A DNA stretch of 64,000 nt from an uncultured Acidobacteriota bacterium (lineage in GTDB: Bacteria > Acidobacteriota > Thermoanaerobaculia > UBA5066): positions 513,812 to 577,811 of the forward strand of contig CAVZPE010000004.1 of the NCBI GenBank assembly GCA_963776915.1, read 5' to 3'. Numbering within the stretch: position 1 is the stretch's first letter; each line of letters begins with the position of its first letter. Positions 36,169 to 59,955 of this stretch are shown here, piece after piece. The translations under genes were made by a program, and so were the position numbers. The notes beneath the pieces are model-generated. The model searched no databases. It had not been told where the DNA came from and worked only from the letters and a program-made list of their open reading frames with translations.

Positions 36169-37149
36169 TCGCCCTCACAAGTCGTGTCGCTGATCGAGGA
36201 GCTGCGAGGGCTCGGGGGGGCGGGAGCGGCGCCCGCCTCCGCGGGCGCCGCTCCCGCCCCGCTCCTCTTCGTGGACCAGGAGGGCGGGACCGTGGACCGC
36301 ATCGGCCCGCTCCTCGGCGTTCCGTTCGCGTCGGCCGCGGCCTGCGCGGAGGCCGGGACGGACCGCGTGCACGAGAACGCGTACCTCATGGGCCGGGCCG
36401 CGCGCCTCCTGGGATTCGACGTGGACTTCGCGCCCTGCCTCGACCTCGGGCAGCCCGGCGCGGGCGCGGTCGTCCTCGAGGGCCGGTGCTTCGGCTTCCA
36501 CGCCGAGGACGTCGTGATCGGCGGGATGGTCTTTCTCCACGGCCTCGCGCGCGCGGGCCTCGCGACCTGCGTCAAGCACTTCCCGGGTCTCGGGCGCGGC
36601 GCGGTGGACTCGCACGCGAAGCTGCCCGTCGTGGACGCGCACGACGTCGACCTCATGGTCACGGACGTCGCGCCCTTCGCGAAGCTCGGCCGCGGGGCCG
36701 ACGGGGTCATGGTCGGCCACGCGGCGTACCCCGGCTTCGAGAACGGAGCGATCGTGCCGGCGTCGCTCTCGCCGCGGATCCACGGAATCCTGCGCGGACC
36801 CGTCCGCTTCGAGGGCGTCGTCTACTCGGACGACCTCGAGATGAACGCTCTCGAGGGGACGCTGCCCGAGCGCGCCGAGCGCGCCGCGGCCGCCGGCTGC
36901 GACGTCGTGATCCTCTCGAGGACGTTCGAGGCCTACGCCGAGGCGGTCGCCCGCGTGGACGCCCTCGGCCCCGATGCCGCCCGCGCCGGGCGTCTCGACG
37001 CCCTCCGCCGCCGCGTCGCGGGCGCCCCGCGCCCGCGGTTCACCGAGGAGGCCTGGGCGAAGCTCGCGGAAGAGGCGGCAGCGTTCGGGGAGTTGATGTC
37101 GAAGCCGAGAGAGAAGAGAAGAGACGAAGACTTCGGAAGATTTTCTTAG
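36031..37149 (+). CDS. nagZ: Beta-N-acetylhexosaminidase (GH3, NagZ-like)
   Basis: This is an intact 372-aa ORF. LDAEERAFFSAHPPLGFLLFKRN, DQEGGTV and KHFPGLG are GH3 N-terminal domain motifs. The last 16 codons and the TAG stop lie in repeat D. Confidence 0.85.
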   Translation: MKRGVAESGAPRFVFGLHGPALDAEERAFFSAHPPLGFLLFKRNLQSPSQVVSLIEELRGLGGAGAAPASAGAAPAPLLFVDQEGGTVDRIGPLLGVPFASAAACAEAGTDRVHENAYLMGRAARLLGFDVDFAPCLDLGQPGAGAVVLEGRCFGFHAEDVVIGGMVFLHGLARAGLATCVKHFPGLGRGAVDSHAKLPVVDAHDVDLMVTDVAPFAKLGRGADGVMVGHAAYPGFENGAIVPASLSPRIHGILRGPVRFEGVVYSDDLEMNALEGTLPERAERAAAAGCDVVILSRTFEAYAEAVARVDALGPDAARAGRLDALRRRVAGAPRPRFTEEAWAKLAEEAAAFGELMSKPREKRRDEDFGRFS

Positions 37150-37370
37150 AAGGGAGAAGAGAGGAAAGAGGAAGATTCTTCTGCTAAGAGCGGCCGCTTC
37201 TCGCGGCCGCTCCGGAACGAATCTGTGCGCGCGCCGGGCTGTCAAGGGCGCGCTTCGCGCGCCGCGTAGCGGCCGAAGGCCCTTGACAGCGCGCCGCGCG
37301 CCCATCTTTCCTCGGCGGCGGCTGCGCATGCAGCCGCCGATAGCAGAAGAAATCTTCTCTTCTTCTCTCT
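37106..37370. repeat. Mosaic palindromic repeat, copy D (long form), between convergent nagZ and ssb
   Basis: The outer arms are GAGAGAGAAGAGAAGAGACGAAGA and TCTTCTCTTCTTCTCTCTTC. The cores are GAAGATTTTCTTAGAAGGGA (37136), GGAAGATTCTTCTGCTAAGAGC (37170) and GCAGAAGAAATCTTCT (37343). The interior hairpins are GCGGCCGC-TTCTC-GCGGCCGC, CTGTCAAGGGC...GCCCTTGACAG and CGGCGGCTGC-GCAT-GCAGCCGCCG. Confidence 0.85.
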
Positions 37371-50530: not shown

Positions 50531-51655
50531 ATGCCCTCGCGCATCCTTCTGGCGGACGACAGTCTGACCATCCGCAAGGTGGTGGAGCTGACCTTCTCGG
50601 GCAGCGAGTTCGAGCTCAAGGCGGTCGGCAACGGCGACGAAGCCGTCGCCCTCCTCGCCGACTTCGAGCCGGACATCGTCCTCGCGGACGCCGTGATGCC
50701 CGGCCGGACCGGATACGAAGTCTGCGAAGAGGTGAAGCGCCGCCCGGGCGGGCGCTTCGTGCCCGTCGTCCTCCTGACCGGCACGTTCGAGCCGTTCGAC
50801 AAGCCGCGCTCGGAGCGCGTCGGCGCGGACTCCGTCGTCACGAAGCCGTTCGATTCGCAGGGCCTCGCGGCCCTCGTCCGGGATCTCGTCCGCCGCGCGG
50901 GCGAGGCGCGGGCGTCCGCTCCCCCGGAGCCGCCCCCCGCTCCCGAGCCGCCGCCTCCTCCTCCTCCGCCCGACGCGGAGGTGGGGGAGAACACGGACCC
51001 GACGTTCTCGGGCGCCGAGCCGTTCTACACGGCGCCCCTGGCGGTGCAGGCACCGCCTCCCACACCGGCGCCGGTCGAGGACATCTTCTCGACGACCGCG
51101 ATCCCCGTCTTCTCCGGGATCGAGGCGACTCCTCCTCCTGCTCCCCGCGCGAGCGGCGAGTTCGAGCCTCCGACCGAGCCGATCTCTCCGGTTCCGCCGC
51201 CGCCCCCGCCGCTCGCGGGCGAGCGCGGGTACGAGATGAACCTCGAGGGCCTCGACGACACGCCCGAGCCCCAGCGCCGCGATCTCGACGAGGACATCGC
51301 CGCCTTCGAGCAGTCCGACCGGGGCCAGACGCGCCGGCCCGAAGCGTGGGAGACCCTCGCCGCGCCCGCGGAGAGCACGCCGTCGCCGGAGACGGCCCAC
51401 TCGGAGCTGGAGGCGCTCGCGGCCGAGGCGAGCCTCACGGACCTCAAGAGCCTGATCCCCGACTCGGCGCCGATGGCGTCTCCGGCCGGATCCTCCGCCG
51501 GGCCGCTCTCGGACGCGGACATCGACCGCATCGCGCGCCGCGTGCTCGAGCTCGGCGGAGAGCGCGTCGTGCGCCGCATCGCCTGGGACGTCGTCCCGGA
51601 GCTGGCCGAGCGCCTCGTCAGGGAGCGCCTCGAGGAGCTCGAGAAGGCCGACTGA
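50531..51655 (+). CDS. Response-regulator receiver protein with a Pro-rich linker and a conserved C-terminal domain
   Basis: The protein starts at the internal ATG of ORF 50381. ILLADDSLTIRKVV..DIVLADAVMPGRTGYEV..VTKPF is a CheY-like receiver. No DNA-binding domain is evident. Confidence 0.7.
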   Translation: MPSRILLADDSLTIRKVVELTFSGSEFELKAVGNGDEAVALLADFEPDIVLADAVMPGRTGYEVCEEVKRRPGGRFVPVVLLTGTFEPFDKPRSERVGADSVVTKPFDSQGLAALVRDLVRRAGEARASAPPEPPPAPEPPPPPPPPDAEVGENTDPTFSGAEPFYTAPLAVQAPPPTPAPVEDIFSTTAIPVFSGIEATPPPAPRASGEFEPPTEPISPVPPPPPPLAGERGYEMNLEGLDDTPEPQRRDLDEDIAAFEQSDRGQTRRPEAWETLAAPAESTPSPETAHSELEALAAEASLTDLKSLIPDSAPMASPAGSSAGPLSDADIDRIARRVLELGGERVVRRIAWDVVPELAERLVRERLEELEKAD

Positions 51656-51689: not shown

Positions 51690-51862
51690 CTTTCGGATTT
51701 CGGATTTCGGATTTCTTAGAAGGGTGAGTGGGGCTGCGGCTCGACCGCCGGCGCGGCGGTCACTCGGCCGCCTCGATCCCTCTTCACCTTCTAAGCAATC
51801 CTCGGGTCCTCGCTTTCCCTCTTCCTCCCCTCATTCGAAGAAATTCTCCTTTCCGATATCCT
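51690..51862. repeat. Repeat copy F upstream of valS, preceded by a 7-nt tandem repeat (ATTTCGG x3-4)
   Basis: The tandem tract is CTTTCGG ATTTCGG ATTTCGG ATTTCTT. The forward core is TTAGAAGGGTGAGTGGGG, followed by a hairpin loop (GACCGCC-GGCGC-GGCGGTC). The reverse core is CCCTCTTCACCTTCTAAG, followed by a polypyrimidine run and CTCATTCGAAGAAATTCTC. Confidence 0.8.
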
Positions 51863-51871
51863 CGGCAGCCT

Positions 51872-54532
51872 GTGAAGGAGCTCGAGAAGACCTTCGACCC
51901 GTCCACCTTCGAGATGCGCTGGTACAAGGCGCAGGAGGAGGCCGGTGTCTTCCGTCCCGAGTCCGCCGGCCGGGACGCCGAGCCGTTCACGATCGTGATC
52001 CCGCCGCCGAACGTCACGGGGCGGCTGCACGTCGGTCACGCGCTCGGGCGGACGCTCGAGGACGTCCTGTGCCGCTGGCGCCGCATGCAGGGGCGCGCCG
52101 TCCTCTGGGTCCCCGGCGTCGACCACGCCGGCATCGCGACGCAGATGGTCGTCGAGCGCGACCTGAGGGAACGGACGGGCCAGTCGCGCCACGACCTCGG
52201 CCGCGACGCGTTCGTCGCGCTCTGCCGCGAGTGGGCGGACGCGCGCCGCGGAGACATCCTCGACCAGATCCGGCGGCTCGGCTGCTCGTGCGACTTCACC
52301 CGCGAGTACTACACGCTCGACGCGATCCGCTCGCGCGCCGTCCGCTTCGCGTTCACGACGCTCTACGAGCAGGGCCTCGCCTATCGCGCCGAGCGGCTCG
52401 TGAACTGGTGCCCGAGCTGCGCGACCGTCCTCTCCGACCTCGAGGTGAACCACGTCGAGACGTCCGGGCACCTGTGGTCGATCGCGTACCCCGTGGTGGG
52501 CGGCGGGGAGGTCGTCGTCGCGACGACGCGGCCCGAGACGATGCTCGGCGACACCGCGGTCGCCGTGCACCCCGACGACGAGCGCTACGCCGGCGCTCGT
52601 CGGCAAGCGCGTGACGCTTCCGCTGACGGGCCGGACCATCCCGGTGATCGCCGATTCCTTCGTGGAGAGGGAGTTCGGGACGGGGATCGTCAAGGTGACG
52701 CCCGCGCACGATCCGAACGACTTCGAGGCGGGCAGGCGCCACGGGCTCGACCTCGTGACCGTCATCGGGTTCGACGGCCGGATGACGCCGGCCGCCGGCG
52801 CCGCGTACGCGGGCCTCGAACGCGCCGAGGCGCGCAAGAAGGTCCTGCGGGACCTCGAGGCGCAGGGCCTGCGCCGGGGCGAGAAGAGCCACCTCGTGCC
52901 GCTCGCGCGCTGCCAGAGGTGCGACACGATCGTCGAGCCGCTCGTCTCGATCCAGTGGTTCGTGAAGATCGGCCCTCTCGCCGCCAAGGCGGTCGAGGCG
53001 ACGGAGAGGCGGGAGACGACCTTCACGCCCGAGCTCTGGAAGAAGACCTACGACGAGTGGATGCGGAACATCCGCGACTGGTGCATCTCGCGCCAGCTCT
53101 GGTGGGGACACGAGATCCCGGCCTGGTACTGCCCGGACGGCCACGTGAACGTCCCGAAGCCGGGCGCGGACGACCCCACGGCGTGCGCGACGTGCGGCTC
53201 GGCCGCCCTCGTGCGCGACCCGGACGTGTTCGACACGTGGTTCTCGTCGTGGCTCATGCCGCTCTCCGTGTTCGGCTGGCCCGCGAAGACGGCGGACTTC
53301 GAGCGCTTCTATCCGACGAGCGTTCTCGTGACGGGCTTCGACATCCTCTTCTTCTGGGTGGCCCGGATGATCATGGCCGGCACCTGGTTCGACGGGCGGG
53401 CGCCCTTCCGGGACGTGGTCCTGCACGGCCTCGTGCGCGACGAGAAGGGCCAGAAGATGTCGAAGACGAAGGGCAACGTCGTCGACCCGCTCGAGATGTG
53501 CGACGAGTTCGGGGCGGACGCCGTGCGGTTCACGCTCGCCGTCCTGTCCGGCACGGGCCGCGACCTCCCGTTCGGCAAGTCGCGCGTCGCGGGTTACCGC
53601 GGCTTCGCGACGAAGGTCTGGAACGCCGCGCGCTTCGCGCTGCCCCTGATCTCGGAAGGAGCGTGCGTGGACGCGCTCGAGTTCCGTTCCCTCTCCACGG
53701 TCGACCGCTGGATCCTCGCGCGGTTCTCGGACGCCGCGAGCCGCGTGGGCGCGTCCCTCGAGGCCTGCCGCTTCGACGAGGCGGCGCACGCGCTCTACCA
53801 GTTCTTCTGGTCCGAGTTCTGCGACGGCTACGTCGAGATGATCAAGCCGGTCCTCCGCGGCGCCGACGTGCCGGAGGCCGAGAAGGCGCGGACGCGCGGC
53901 GTCCTCAAGCGGGTGCTCCTCGACTCGCTCGCGCTCCTGCATCCGTTCATGCCGTTCGTGTCCTGCGAGATCCGCGAGGCGCTGAACGGGGACGGCCTCG
54001 GCCTCGCGACGGCGAAGTTCCCCGAGCCGGACCCCGACTGGAAGGACGACGCGGCGGTGAGGTGGTCGAGACTCCTGCGGGCGATCGTGACGCGAGTCCG
54101 GAACCTGCGCGCCGAGCACGGCCTCGCGCAGACCGAGGCGCTCGCGGTCGGCCTCGAGCTCCCGCAGGACCCCTTTCAGAGGGAAATGCGGCGTCACGTC
54201 CCGCTCCTGAGCCATCTCGCGCGGCTCAGCGCCGTGGAGATTTCTTCGAGGTGGAATTGGCCCGGAGCGCATCGCGACGTCGTCGCGGAGATCGGGATCG
54301 TCGTCGAATTGCCTTCGAAGAGAGATTTCTTCCGAAGACAGGGAGAAGCTGCGAGCGCGACGTGGAGCGCCTGCGCGCCGAGGCGGCGAAGATCAGAGCG
54401 CGGCTGGCCGACCAGAGCTTCCTCGCGCGCGCTCCCGCACCCGTTGTCGCGAAGACGAAGCAGCAGCTCGAAGAAATCTCCGAACGGATCGCGCGGCTCT
54501 CCGGCAACCTCGTGGGGACTCCGGACCGGTGA
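51872..54532 (+). pseudogene. valS: Valyl-tRNA synthetase, two or more frame changes (about 52590 and about 54340)
   Basis: The GTG at 51872 gives MKELEKTFDPSTFEMRWY. The sequence carries PPPNVTGRLHVGHAL (HIGH motif), TRPETMLGDTAVAVHPDD, then ORF 52611 (GTGIVKVTPAHDPNDF..KMSKTKGN, the KMSKS motif). The coiled-coil tail returns to the first frame. Confidence 0.9.
54237..54340. repeat. Inverted core pair G inside the valS C-terminal region (a further core lies at 54466-54480)
   Basis: GAGATTTCTTCGAGGTGGAATTGG lies at 54237. GAATTGCCTTCGAAGAGAGATTTCTTCCGAAGA lies at 54305. They flank native-looking codons (PGAHRDVVAEIGIVV). The second valS frame change lies at the right core. Confidence 0.6.
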
Positions 54533-55354: not shown

Positions 55355-56155
55355 ATGGAGGCCCCGGAGCTCGACGAGTCCACGTACGCGACGAGAGTCG
55401 AGGACGCCTTCATCGCCGAGCGCGGCACGCCCTTCCTCCTCTCGCCGAAGGACTGGACGCTCATCCGCGGCTGGCGCGAGGGCGGGATCCCGGTGGACAC
55501 CGTGGTCCGGGCCGTGCGGGAGGCGTTCGAGAAGCGGCGCGCGCGCGGCCAGGCCGGCAAGATCTCGTCCATCGCGTACTGCGCGAACGCCGTCGAGGAG
55601 CTCTGGGAGATGGAGCGCCGGGGCCTCGTGGGCAAGGCCCACGAGGCCCCCCCGGCGGGCGCGAACGCGCCCGCGAGAGGAGAGAAGTCTCTTGCTTTGC
55701 TCTCGGATCGTCTGCGCGCGATGAGCGACGCTCTCGCGACCATGGACGGCGCTGAAGATCTTCTTAGAAGGGTGAGTGGGGCCGGGGCGGCGGGCAGCGC
55801 CGGTGCGGCTCCTCGAGCGGAGGGCGCCCCAAACACCTTCGAAGAAATCCCCCTCTTCTCGTCCCTCCGAAAGTCGCTGAGCTCCGCCGCCTCGAAGATC
55901 GAGGCGCTGCCGCGCGATCTTTCATTCGAAGAATCCGAAGAGAAGCTCTCCGTGATCGAGGCGTCGCTCGTGAAGTCGGCCCTCCGCGTCCTGCCGTCCG
56001 AGCAGCAGGCTCTCGTCGAATCCCGCGTGTCCTCCGCCCTCGGCGACGTCGCCGGCGTGTCGCCCGCGGTCGTCGAGCGGATGCGCCGGGCGCTCACGCG
56101 CCGCGAGGTGCGCCTGCTCCTCGGCCTGCCGGCCCTCACGCTCCTCCATGGCTGA
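55355..56155 (+). CDS. Hypothetical protein with a conserved N-terminal domain; the C-terminal half carries repeat H
   Basis: This is an intact 266-aa ORF. The N-terminus AFIAERGTPFLLSPKDWTLIRGWREGGIPVDTVVRAV looks like a conserved uncharacterised family that I cannot name. Confidence 0.55.
   Translation: MEAPELDESTYATRVEDAFIAERGTPFLLSPKDWTLIRGWREGGIPVDTVVRAVREAFEKRRARGQAGKISSIAYCANAVEELWEMERRGLVGKAHEAPPAGANAPARGEKSLALLSDRLRAMSDALATMDGAEDLLRRVSGAGAAGSAGAAPRAEGAPNTFEEIPLFSSLRKSLSSAASKIEALPRDLSFEESEEKLSVIEASLVKSALRVLPSEQQALVESRVSSALGDVAGVSPAVVERMRRALTRREVRLLLGLPALTLLHG
55754..55860. repeat. Palindromic repeat, copy H, in-frame inside the 55355 gene (an extra core lies at 55919-55940)
   Basis: The forward core is GAAGATCTTCTTAGAAGGGTGAGTGGGG, and its last 22 nt are identical to copy F. 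A GC loop follows. The reverse core is CACCTTCGAAGAAATCCCCCTCTTCTC. The translation is EDLLRRVSGAGAAGSAGAAPRAEGAPNTFEEIPLFS. Confidence 0.8.
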
Positions 56156-57520
56156 GGTCCGCCCGGGCGACGCCCTCGAGGCTCTCGTCGAGCGCGTCGT
56201 GCCCGGGGGCGAGGGGCTCGCGCGAACGGAGGGCGTCGTGACGCTCGTGGCGGGCGGCCTGCCGGGGGACCGCGTCCGGCTGCGGGTGGAGGACGCGTCT
56301 CCCCGCCTCATCCGGGGTCGCGCGGAGGAGATTCTCGAGGCGGGCGAGGCGCGCCGCCCGGACGCCGACGTCTGCGGCCTCGCGCGGAGCGGCGCCTGCG
56401 GCGGCTGCGACTGGCCCGCTGCGCGGCCGGAGCACCATCGCGCGCTCAAGACCGAGCTCGTCCTCGACGCGCTGCGGCGGCTCGGCGGCCTCACCGCGGC
56501 CGACCTGCCCGAGCCGCGCTGGCTGGGTTCCCCGCCGAACTACCGCCTCCGCAACCGGCTGCACCTCGACCGCGAGGGGCGCCTCGGCTTCTTCGCGCCC
56601 CGCTCGAAGGCGGTCGCGGACCTCGAGGGCTGCCAGATCGTGTCGAAGCCCTTCCTGGAGCGGCTCCCGGCGCTCCGGGACCACCTTCGCTCGATGGGGC
56701 CGATGGAAGGGGAGCTCTTGACCCTGGAGTCGCGCGACGGGAAGACCCTGCTCGGCGAGTTGCGGCTCTCGGCGGGTGACGGTCTGCAAATTTCTTCGAA
56801 GGTGAAAGAGAGAGGGAGAGGGCCGTTCGACGGGTTTCGCGTCGTCGATGCGGGTGGGCGGCTGCTCGCCTCGGACGGTCCCTCGTCGCTTTCCATCGAG
56901 GCAGGCGGCGCCTCGTTCGACGTGCCGGTGTCTTCCTTCTTTCAAGGAAATCTCTTTCTCCTCGATTCGTTCCTCGAGGAGATCCGGACGGCGCTTCGCG
57001 CCGGAAGAGAAGAGAAGATTTTCCTAGAAGGGAAGAGGGGGGAGGCGCGCGCTTGCGCGCCGTGGATCTCTATGCGGGCGTCGGGTTCATGACGCGCCCT
57101 CTCCTGGAGCTCGCGGCCGAGATGGGAGGCGGCGAGGTGACGGCCGTCGAGATCGACCCGGCGTCGTCCCATTCACTTTCAAAGAATCTTCAGGCCTGGC
57201 AGAAGGAGGGCCTGCCCCTCGCGCGCTCGATCCGAGCCTCCGCTGAATCCTTCTTCCACTCGAAGAAATCCGAATCTTCGGTCTCTCTTCTCCTCGCGGA
57301 CCCTCCGCGCGCCGGCCTGTCGCCCGAGGTGCGGAAGGGGCTCCTGCGGCTCGCGCCGCCGCGCGTCCTGATGGTGTCCTGCGACCCGCCGACGCTCGCC
57401 CGCGACCTCGCGGCGCTGAAGGAGCGCTACGCGGTGACGCGCCTGACGCTCCTCGACCTCTTCCCGCAGACCCACCACGTCGAGACGGTGGCCTTGCTCG
57501 CCGCGCGTCCGATCGGATAG
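56148..57520 (+). pseudogene. 23S rRNA (uracil-5-)-methyltransferase RlmD/RumA-like (TRAM, Fe-S Cys cluster, SAM MTase), one frame change near 57040
   Basis: ORF 56148 carries CGLARSGACGGCDW and SSFFQGN. ORF 57053 carries VDLYAGVGFM, LLADPPRAGL, MVSCDPPTLARDL and DLFPQTHHVETV. The join falls in repeat I-3 at a G6 run. Confidence 0.8.
56788..57293. repeat. Cluster I: five core copies inside the rlmD-like gene
   Basis: The five cores are AAATTTCTTCGAAGGTGAAAGAGAGAGGGAGAGGG (56788), CTTCTTTCAAGGAAATCTC (56936), GAAGAGAAGAGAAGATTTTCCTAGAAGGGAAGAGGGGGG plus the GGCGCGC-GCTT-GCGCGCC hairpin (57004-57060), CTTTCAAAGAATCTTCAG (57175) and CCACTCGAAGAAATCCGAATCTTCGGTCTCTCTTCTCC (57256). Confidence 0.7.
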
Positions 57521-57529
57521 AAGCCGCGC

Positions 57530-59955
57530 ATGAGGCGCTCGTGGTCGCCCGGGGCGGGCGCGCCCTCGCTGCCGGCCGCGTTCGCGATCGCCGCGGGCAT
57601 CGCCGCGGCCGTCTCCTTCGCGGTCCCGCCGTCCGCCGTTCGCCGGCGGCGCGCTCGCTCGTGGCGTCGCTCGCGGGAATCGCCGCGGGACGGGCGCACG
57701 GCCGCGCCGCGGCTCTCGGCGGCCTCGTCCTCGCTGCGGCCGCGGGCTTCTGGTCGGCCCGCGCGCGCTGGCTCCTCCCCGCCGGCCGGGCGGAGGCCTC
57801 GGCCCGCGCCGCGATCGCCGAGGCGCTCGCCCGCGACGCGGAGGCGGGCGGCGCGCTCGTGGAGGTCGTCGGACGCGTCGACGCGCCGTGGTCGCCGAGC
57901 GGCTCCCAGCGCCGGACCCGGCTCGACGTGGAATCGGCGGAATGCGGCGGAAAGCCCCTCGCGCTCGACGCGCCCGTCGCCCTCGTCGTCGCCGGCGAGA
58001 CCGACCCGTCGCCCATCGCCGAGGTCGGGGACCTCGTCCGCGTGAAGGGGACGCTGCGCCTGCCCGAGCAGGGCGGCCCCCGCCGGGCGCCCGTCGACCT
58101 GCCGGACCAGCCTCACCTGCTCCTCAAGAGCGGCGCCCAGATCGAGAGGATCTCCGGCCCCTCCGGCCCCTTCGCCGCCGTGCAGCGCGCCCGCGCCGCC
58201 GTCAAGCGCCGCCTGCGCGCGAACCTCGCGGGCGCGCCCGACGCGGACCGCACGGCCCTCGCCCTGCTCCTCGCGTTCGTCCTCGGCGAGACGCAGGACC
58301 TGCCGCTCGCGGCCGTCGGGGCGTTCCGCGACGGCGGCGTGGCCCACATCGTCGCGATCTCGGGCCTGCAGGTCGCGCTCGTCGCGGCGCTCCTCGGTTT
58401 TCTCGCGCGCAGGGCGGGAGTCTCGCTCCGGGCGCGCGACGCGATCGTCCTCGGCGCGGCTCTCCTTTTCGCGATCTTCGCCGGCGGCCGGCCGCCCGTC
58501 TGGCGGGCCGCGCTCATGATCGGCCTCTACCTGGCGGCGCGCCTCCTCGGACGGCCGACCTCGCCGGAGCACGTCCTCGGGTTCTCGGCGTGCGCGATCC
58601 TCCTCGCCGACCCGTCGGCCCTCTTCGACGTCGGCTTCCTCCTGACGTTCGCGGCCGTCTTCGGTCTCGCCGAATTCGGCGCGCCGGCCGTCGTCGCGCT
58701 CCGGAACCGGGGCGTGCCGGCGCCCGTCGCGGACGCGATCGGGGCGACGCTCGGGGCCGAGCTGGCGGTGCTGCCGATCCAGGCCTTCGTCTTCAACGTG
58801 GTTCCCTTCGTCGCCCTGCTCTCGAATCCGTTCATCGTGCCCCTCTCGGGCGTCTTCCTTCTCGCGGGCCTCGCGCTCCTGCCGCTTCTCCTCGTGTCGC
58901 CCGCCGTGGCCTCCTCCGCGATCGTCCCGCTGCGCCTGCTCTCGGACCTGCAGTTCGGGATCCTCGACGCGCTGGACCGGCTGCACGCCGTCCGCGTCGT
59001 CCCGACGCCGCCCTTCGCGCTCGCGGTGGCGGCGGCGGGTCTCCTCCTGGTCGCGGGCCTCGCCGCGGCCCGGCCCGTCCGCCGGGCGGCCCTCGCGGGC
59101 GGCCTTCTCGCGGTCGGGACGATCGTCGGCGCGTCCTCGGCCGCGGCGGCCGAGGGCACCGCCGTCCTCCGGTCGGTGGACGTCGGACAAGGGGACTGCT
59201 GGCTGCTCGTCACGCCGCGGGGACGCGTTCTCGTCGACGGCGGCGGCAGCCCCGACCGGGCGTACGAGTTCGGGCGGCTGCGCCTCATCCCGAAGCTCGC
59301 GGACCTCGGCGCGGTCGCGCTCGACGCCGTGATCCTCACGCACCCTCACCCGGACCATACGCGCGGCCTTCTCGCGGTCCTGTCGTCGCTGCCGGTCGGC
59401 CGCGTCGTCCTGCCGCGCGCCGCGCCGCGGAACGTGTTCCTCGACGAGTTCCTCGCCGTCGCGACGAGGCGGCGCCTCGTCCTCGAGCGGCTCGGCGCCG
59501 GGGAACGCTTCGAGGCGGCGGGCCTCGCCTTCGACGTGCTGCATCCGCCCGACGAGGCGTACGCCCGCGCCCGGGAGAACAACGGCTCGCTCGTCCTGAG
59601 GGCCCGTGTCGAGGGGCGGACCCTCCTCCTGACGGGCGACGTCGAGGCCGCGGCCGAGCGCGATCTCGTCGCGTCGCGCGCGGACCTCTCGGCCGACGTG
59701 CTGAAGGTCCCGCACCACGGGAGCCGGACGTCGACGACGCCGGAGTTCCTCGCCCGCGTGTCCCCCCGGATCGGGCTCGTCGGGGTCGGCCGGCGAAACC
59801 GGTTCGGCCATCCCGCGCCCGACGTCCTGGCGCGCCTCGCCCGCGCCGGCGTGCGCGTCTTCCGCACGGACCGGGACGGGGACGTCGCGCTGACGCTCGC
59901 GGCGGGACGCATTCTGCCGGCGTTCCCCGAGTCCGTCGCGCGGGTGCGTCCGTGA
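57530..59955 (+). pseudogene. comEC: DNA internalisation competence protein ComEC/Rec2 (with a metallo-beta-lactamase domain), one frame change near 57640
   Basis: The ATG at 57530 (ORF 57530: MRRSWSPGAGAPSLPAAFAIAAGIAAAV) joins ORF 57541. That ORF carries the competence domain and the MBL motif ILTHPHPDHTRG plus KVPHHGS. Confidence 0.85.

Follow-up and report, generated by a model that had tools for sequence, protein, structure and literature searches.

The window, by which we mean the whole stretch of 64,000 nucleotides that was analysed (C4:513812-577811), belongs to a Thermoanaerobaculia genome of 4.49 Mb in 34 contigs, with a GC content of 71%. The repeat described here consists of short arms that occur alone or as facing pairs, and three of its copies in the window, D, F and H, are treated in detail. 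Copy D lies at the end of a Glyco_hydro_3 (nagZ-like) ORF (36184-37149), copy F lies upstream of valS (51872-54532), and copy H lies inside a conserved gene next to the gene for a rumA-like m5U methyltransferase (56148-57520), which itself has five arms or arm-like patches. A ComEC homologue is encoded just downstream (57661-59955); the genome has a second ComEC on contig C33, DprA on C7 and two secretins. The features that the text refers to are the following.

37133-37164, + strand: arm of copy D, first core base 37143; the nagZ-like ORF reads its TAG frame
51703-51734, + strand: left arm of copy F, intergenic, first core base 51713, with the same 22-mer as copy H
51776-51807, - strand: right arm of copy F, first core base 51797, forming a strong hairpin with the left arm
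51821-51852, - strand: additional solo arm of the TTCGAATG variant, after copy F and before the GTG of valS at 51872
55355-56155, + strand: host gene of copy H, conserved hypothetical, 266 aa, between birA and the rumA-like methyltransferase gene
55751-55782, + strand: left arm of copy H, composed of the purine run GAAGAT, the core TTCTTAGAAGG (first base 55761) and then GTGAGTGGGGC
55783-55824, + strand: GC-rich interior of copy H, translated AGAAGSAGAAPRAEG
55825-55856, - strand: right arm of copy H, TTCGAA variant, first core base 55846
56782-56813, + strand: arm in the rumA-like gene, TTCGAA variant in the TAG frame, ATT TCT TCG AAG GTG AAA GAG = ISSKVKE
56928-56959, - strand: arm over the native FFQGN of the methyltransferase, core 56949, TCC TTC TTT CAA GGA AAT CTC TTT
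57011-57042, + strand: arm in the rumA-like gene at a gain/loss site, core 57021, with a 1-nt frame change in its purine run

Copies F, H and D

Copies F and H share an identical 22-mer, TTCTTAGAAGGGTGAGTGGGGC, which is found at exactly two sites of the window (51713-51734 and 55761-55782, both on the + strand) and is expected at none by chance. The initial annotation had recognised both sites, placing each of them one base too low. As it had noted, two of the three sense frames of the 22-mer are closed (TTC TTA GAA GGG TGA and TCT TAG), and copy H is read in the open one, CTT AGA AGG GTG AGT GGG (LRRVSG), by the ORF at 55355-56155 on the + strand, which translates the copy as ...AEDLLRRVSGAG.... 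One antisense frame of the 22-mer is closed too, by a TAA. The whole left arm of H is read as GAA GAT CTT CTT AGA AGG GTG AGT GGG (EDLLRRVSG), in the frame called S1 below. The right arm is read antisense as ACC TTC GAA GAA ATC (TFEEI), and a TTAGAA core at that place would give a TAA. We folded F and H: F forms a strong hairpin (z = -3.6), and H has z = -0.5 and no strong hairpin.

For copy D, the TAG at 37147-37149 is indeed the stop of the nagZ-like ORF. For copy F, the TGA at 51725-51727 had been said to lie in the frame of valS and to close read-through from upstream. The first part is correct, with the GTG of valS at 51872, 147 nt downstream, but the second finds no support in the genome-wide data given below, which have no frame bias. 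The same TGA also shares its frame with the stop (51653-51655) of the upstream response-regulator gene, and its frame match to valS is a 1-in-3 coincidence.

All gene positions come from our own codon-statistics caller, applied to a frameshift-rich assembly. A caller that looks for genes from start to stop covered 73% of the genome, a low value because of these frameshifts, and was replaced by frame segments (87%). In the window, valS requires three frame changes, near 52594, 54318 and 54350. Relatives have a single intact frame, and here the halves of valS align to adjoining parts of the tRNA-synt_1 profile. An arm-like patch that encodes EISSED contains two of the changes. The rumA-like gene is interrupted by one frame change, of 1 nt, within the purine run (57006-57014) of the arm at 57021; its orthologues are one ORF of 445-466 aa in 9/9 relatives, if an upstream read-through in L008 is ignored. 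The frame changes in both genes are probably consensus indels.

The repeat family in the genome

Each arm represents a half-site of a repeat family that is very abundant and confined to one clade. A position-matrix scan of the genome gives 1,214 arms at a score of at least 14 bits. At this score, about 29 positions are expected by chance in an order-3 Markov simulation, compared with 1,471 raw matches and 1,214 after filtering. The matrix was seeded on 346 genomic copies of TTCTTAGAA; we used the first matrix, which holds the register, as the iterated version drifted to a generic purine/T-run motif. The related loci discussed below come from metagenome-assembled genomes of Thermoanaerobaculia/Acidobacteriota. 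In a literature search, we found no paper on this repeat in Thermoanaerobaculia.

Arms are balanced between the strands, with 614 on the + strand and 600 on the - strand. There are 424 facing (inverted) pairs, with a usual spacing of 80-200 nt, and 366 arms are unpaired; counted simply as facing arms within 400 nt of each other, the pairs number 429. The arm sites are clustered (the CV of their spacing is 1.28, compared with 1.06 +/- 0.05 for random placement).

Each arm is built from a polypurine run, the core TTCTTNGAAGG and a G-rich tail, and the family consensus can be written as a polypurine run followed by (A/T)TTTCTTNGAAGG and TGAAGAGGGG. Among the arms whose core is otherwise intact, 401 have A at the variable base N, 298 have C and 117 have T. 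The main-family consensus, GAAGGTGAAGAGGGG, has an open sense frame different from that of the 22-mer in H and F. The variant found in these two copies, GGGTGAGTGGGG, defines a subfamily: the 22-mer occurs four times in the genome, the 18-mer nine times and TTAGAAGGGT(A/G)AG 32 times. We see that the core is dyad-symmetric (CTTC-TTN-GAAG); its C variant is the perfect palindrome CTTCGAAG, with TTCGAA within it.

Two further observations concern loci outside the window. The near-identical ORFs C24:21850-23505 and C25:35342-36997 have the same solo arm (YKRFLRKGAS) and could be paralogues or duplicated contig ends. At C1:14381-15844, a MeaB GTPase domain and a glyoxalase/epimerase domain share a single open frame, and a repeat pair lies exactly where they meet; two genes may have fused via a stop-free repeat, or a stop may have been lost.

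Frame usage of intragenic arms

Taken alone, copy H says little about frame selection, because any intact ORF must read its copy open. For the genome-wide table, a unit was considered to be in frame if its two flanks are coding on one strand and in one frame and no stop separates them. The frames were judged by the codon statistics of the 240 nt on either side of the repeat, not by whole ORFs. Their labels combine S (sense) or A (antisense) with a number for the place of the first core base in its codon, counted from 0, so that in S1 the first T of the core is the second base of a codon. By this definition 37 pairs and 26 solo arms are securely in frame, that is, 100 of the 1,214 arms.

Arms per frame (n = 100): S0, 17; S1, 18; S2, 15; A0, 10; A1, 22; A2, 18

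These numbers are compatible with a uniform use of the six frames (p = 0.45, with a range of 0.10-0.45 over five settings of window and threshold), bearing in mind that the two arms of one pair are not independent. All nine combinations of sense and antisense frames are present among the 37 in-frame pairs, H being S1 with A2. The six frames give six different peptides, namely FLEG, LRR, SSK, LLR, PSKK and FEE.

We also calculated the numbers expected if arms inserted at random and a stop filter then acted, drawing arms from the intergenic-like pool and retaining them only if open. The expected numbers from S0 to A2 are 18, 12, 11, 24, 24 and 11, and this expectation is rejected (p = 0.004). 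The three frames that are prone to stops contain 51 of the 100 arms, compared with 34 expected (p = 0.0007).

The initial annotation had seen in the frames of H, F and D the mark of purifying selection on in-frame insertions, and had added that intragenic copies spread randomly over the frames, or frequent stop-bearing copies inside otherwise intact genes, would speak against this. The first of these is what we find: genome-wide, the intragenic arms are random over the six frames. Of the second there is no sign, the same-frame junctions with a stop being 29, below chance. The interpretation is partly supported: in-phase stops are avoided, but there is no preferred frame.

Arm variants are matched to the frame

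While all frames are used, they are not used by the same arms. Core positions 0-4, 6-8 and 10 have 73-100% consensus in all six frame classes (87-100% barring three cells). At position 5, A is present in 57% of the pool, in 94% of the S1 arms, in 7% of the S2 arms and in 6% of the A2 arms. An A at the base that would complete a stop is seen in 1/15 arms in the TAG frame and in 1/18 in the TAA frame, compared with 57% of the intergenic-like pool, a reference that may include intragenic arms misfiled through assembly indels. Neither of the two exceptions contains a stop, and both differ elsewhere in the core. At the TGA positions, the consensus falls in S1 only.

The same can be seen for whole variants. 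The TTCGAA-type arms are found mostly (24/34) in S2 and A2, where TTAGAA is forbidden (p = 0.001), and never in S1, where 40% would be expected (p = 1e-4). In contrast, there are 17 A-type arms in S1, compared with 6 expected, a threefold excess (p = 7e-6). Selection against in-phase stops is plainly visible in the sequences of the arms. The informative result is this matching of variant to frame under a constraint at the nucleotide level, not a selection of frames.

Stops at gene ends

At 404 arms, a gene reads into the arm. The TAG of an arm ends 23 ORFs (the nagZ-like ORF among them), and another 12 ORFs are closed by a TGA or TAA that lies 11 bases into the core; copy D belongs to these approximately 35 cases of a gene that takes its stop from the arm it reads into. 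For genes that end just before an arm, we were not able to find any frame preference (57/47/47, p = 0.52). A role of the arm stops as back-up stops behind upstream genes was rejected for this lack of frame bias.

Among co-directional junctions, 29 in the same frame hold a stop, compared with 108 in different frames. The former are fewer than expected by chance, not more, and we therefore rejected a class of genes disrupted by nonsense copies. The excess of different-frame junctions fits assembly indels.

Copy H and its host gene in related genomes

The 266-aa product of the host gene of H has no Pfam match. The ORF is a real gene, with orthologues in nine related genomes at 63-80% identity. 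The left arm is found at the same place and in S1 in 9/9 orthologues, as CTT AGA AGG or with the variants CTT GGA, CTG AGA and CTC AGA. All ten species have it in S1, so H is no recent arrival that by luck fell into a suitable frame. The full palindrome is present in the window and in L001-L004, and L005 and L006 have part of the stem or interior. In L007-L009 the interior is missing, and we see only the left arm and a weaker facing patch at FEESE. The length of the H interval varies between species (81, 96, 114, 174 and 183 nt), always as a multiple of 3. Two further patches of the host gene, at EKSLALLS and at SFEESE (55922-55945), resemble arms more weakly and have conserved codons ending in A or T.

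The codons of the arms are unusual for this genome, which has 94% GC at third positions and in which AGA makes up 1.3% of the Arg codons, CTT 3.5% of the Leu codons and TTT 3.8% of the Phe codons. In the host gene of H, 61% of the codons in the arms end in A or T, compared with 10% elsewhere in the gene. Synonymous divergence is lower in the arm codons (19/171) than in the other codons (296/1231, p = 8e-5). Copy H is old and inherited, and its DNA is constrained.

Insertion and overprinting

Both insertion (or gain and loss) and overprinting occur among the intragenic arms, and the rumA-like gene has examples of each. At the site near 57021, L004-L007 and L009 have an empty allele (LRGLSPRRAVDLY), and L002, L003 and the window have an arm in S1; in the filled allele, GLSPR is replaced in frame by AGREEEDFLRRKEGSGAPL. 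At this empty-versus-filled site, the one site examined, there is neither a target-site duplication nor a TA target.

A different picture is seen at 56949. The residues SSFFQGN are invariant, and nearly all ten species retain their codons TCC TTC TTT CAA GGA AAT, rare ones included. A weak local phmmer match (E = 0.15) places FFQxN opposite FFQTN of an m5U methyltransferase of known structure (PDB chain 8z62_A). Among the phmmer searches against the PDB, with the full-length protein and with an 87-aa query, most matches skip the FFQGN region, and the 8z62_A alignment is the only one to cover it. The arm at 56949 is an overprint on native residues and not an insertion. The SLSKNL arm of the same enzyme likewise retains its rare codons in nearly all ten species. 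It is read in an antisense frame, and its variable base is free among species (TCA, TCG, TCC), so the force on the motif does not act on every position. The S2 arm at 56782-56813 has TCG or TTG among the orthologues, and TAG in none. This arm and one in valS (54237-54260), both in the TAG frame, encode the same peptide, ISSKV, and are conserved in relatives.

For the hosts of pairs in the genome, we scanned 20 of the 63 host proteins with Pfam. Approximately four pairs lie inside domains without any added length (PseudoU_synth_2, Acyltransferase, DHquinase_I and probably AMP-binding). Of the others, approximately six lie in insertions of 16-66 aa and approximately seven in linkers or at domain ends.

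Possible explanations

We think it probable that two constraints act together, one that keeps the DNA of the motif and one that keeps the frame open, with the arm variant fitted to each gene. A force at the nucleotide level would hold the motif near its consensus everywhere, also in genes and in spite of very rare codons, and purifying selection would keep the host ORFs open. What is seen agrees with this: no frame is preferred, all six are used, and N and the downstream GGTGA are altered exactly where an in-phase TAG, TAA or TGA would arise and are kept elsewhere. The left arm of H has had the reading (E/D)(F/L)L(R/G)(R/K) from a time before the divergence of the ten species, and the interior of the element has grown or shrunk in whole codons. 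Our best guess is that the force consists of copy-and-paste of the hairpin unit combined with short-patch gene conversion in which other copies are the donors, or with biased repair from them; recognition by a dimeric DNA-binding protein may contribute as well, the core being dyad-symmetric. This explanation leaves over the strong preference for A in S1. Moreover, the 22-nt identity of distant loci and the discrete subfamilies would fit ordinary copy-and-paste elements equally well. One may go a step further and regard the arm as a functional or self-driving DNA signal, written by substitution or short-patch conversion and kept against the codon bias across genera. We consider this possible but rather doubtful. 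If it were true, the integrity of the ORF would be the sole limit on where an arm can be placed, and the signal would be what uptake sequences or the cyanobacterial HIP1 are elsewhere, but in a high-GC Acidobacteriota lineage and with a putative reader protein.

The explanation closest to the initial annotation is that a mobile palindromic element inserts at random, that copies with an in-phase TAG, TGA or TAA are purged and that copies in an open frame survive. The in-frame copies are indeed almost free of stop-forming bases in phase, clear intragenic sense copies of GGGT(A/G)AG are all in one open sense frame, and in-frame gain and loss between species are seen at the rumA site and in the interior of H. 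There is also a precedent, since MITE species with an open frame are found in genes and those with stops in all frames are intergenic (PMC2229807). On the other hand, such a filter should give frames in proportion to their openness and fewer arms in the stop-prone frames, contrary to the frame table, and it does not predict the concentration of TTCGAA-type arms where TTAGAA is forbidden, nor their absence from S1. The arms that lie over native, family-wide residues without added length, the empty and filled rumA alleles without a target-site duplication and the presence of the H arm in all ten species compared argue against it too, and we regard insertion with a filter as unlikely.

A signal similar to uptake sequences would arise by molecular drive and without transposition: mutation or recombination that improves the motif would be favoured, and coding constraint would pick the variant for each frame. 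The equal orientations, the dyad pairs that make up most intergenic copies and the coding copies in six frames, native residues included, all agree with this, and equal orientation, dyad pairs and coding copies in several frames are known for USS and DUS (PMC2817400). The genome also encodes the competence proteins named above, which is not diagnostic, as such genes are widespread. Uptake sequences are described as more evenly spaced (PMC2817400), unlike the clustered arm sites. The unit is longer, with about 45 nt, its pairs enclose a GC-rich hairpin of 40-150 nt, and there are discrete subfamilies. Finally, the codons of the coding copies are very rare, which is the reverse of the frame preference of USS. 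Taken together, an uptake-like signal appears quite improbable. There could also be a problem with the data, such that the intragenic arms are chance AT-rich patches or wrong gene calls and H is not translated. The gene calls are our own, and several frame changes are needed in valS and one in the rumA-like gene. Against this stand the excess of arms over the chance expectation, the conservation of the H host ORF and its arm in nine independent assemblies and the rare codons at the same sites in nearly all ten species, so that an artefact is hardly credible. The combination of a motif kept at the DNA level with frames kept open is the explanation that we favour.

Relation to known repeat families

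The families that come nearest are the Rickettsia palindromic elements (RPEs) and, where overprinting is concerned, the DNA uptake sequences. RPEs (Ogata et al. 2000, summarised in PMC10969869, PMC2229807 and PMC1779305) are hairpin-forming interspersed repeats of approximately 100-150 bp that are found between genes and in frame inside conserved genes. The arms similarly lie both between genes and inside intact ORFs, which for H is confirmed in orthologues, and as with the RPEs of Rickettsia some insertions are old and lineage-wide, with the host proteins intact. Compared by description only, RPEs have one conserved peptide in one frame, and here we find six frames and six peptides instead of a conserved peptide in a single frame. 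Furthermore, the conserved unit here is an arm of 20-45 nt that also occurs solo and over native residues, and the RPE host has an AT-rich reduced genome, unlike the free-living Acidobacteriota lineage with its 71% GC.

With the USS of Haemophilus and the DUS of Neisseria, the family shares a short motif with a copy number in the hundreds to thousands, equal orientations and dyad pairs, as well as coding copies in several frames that are written into pre-existing codons (Findlay & Redfield 2009, PMC2817400). It differs from them in its clustered spacing, longer motif, subfamilies, GC-rich interior and rare codons, and its host lineage is not known to have an uptake bias.

For the MITEs Correia/NEMIS (107 bp versus 155 bp), ERIC and YPAL, stop content decides on intragenic residence (Delihas 2008, PMC2229807), and as in the present family these repeats give neighbouring genes new C-termini and stop codons (PMC2229807). 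Inverted arms are a MITE trait that we find here as well; a target-site duplication is another, and it was absent at the single site examined, in rumA. In contrast to these MITEs, the present family adapts its sequence to each frame and is not confined to open frames.

Abundant short palindromic units in facing pairs, mostly intergenic, are reminiscent of REP, BIME and REPIN sequences, which RAYT transposases mobilise. REPs are described as extragenic, whereas at least 8% of the arms are translated here. A search for RAYT (Y1 transposase, PF01797) gave no match in this genome, which is 81.6% complete, and gave matches in the control genomes.

In summary, the stop-content rule is already known from MITEs, and in-frame palindromic repeats are classic in Rickettsia. 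The present family differs in its use of all six frames, in its solo arms and in that some arms lie over native residues.

There are practical consequences for annotation, as the arms make patches of rare codons, alternative stops and likely assembly indels, by which gene callers can be misled. If both constraints do act as we suppose, the family would be a clean natural example of overlapping codes, in which approximately 20 bases are preserved in six translations. The overlap would span catalytic motifs of essential enzymes, in a genome with 94% GC at third positions. The family allows the force at the nucleotide level to be measured relative to codon and protein selection, and its arms mark thousands of sites at which the protein or process reading the motif might be found, in a soil lineage that has been little studied.
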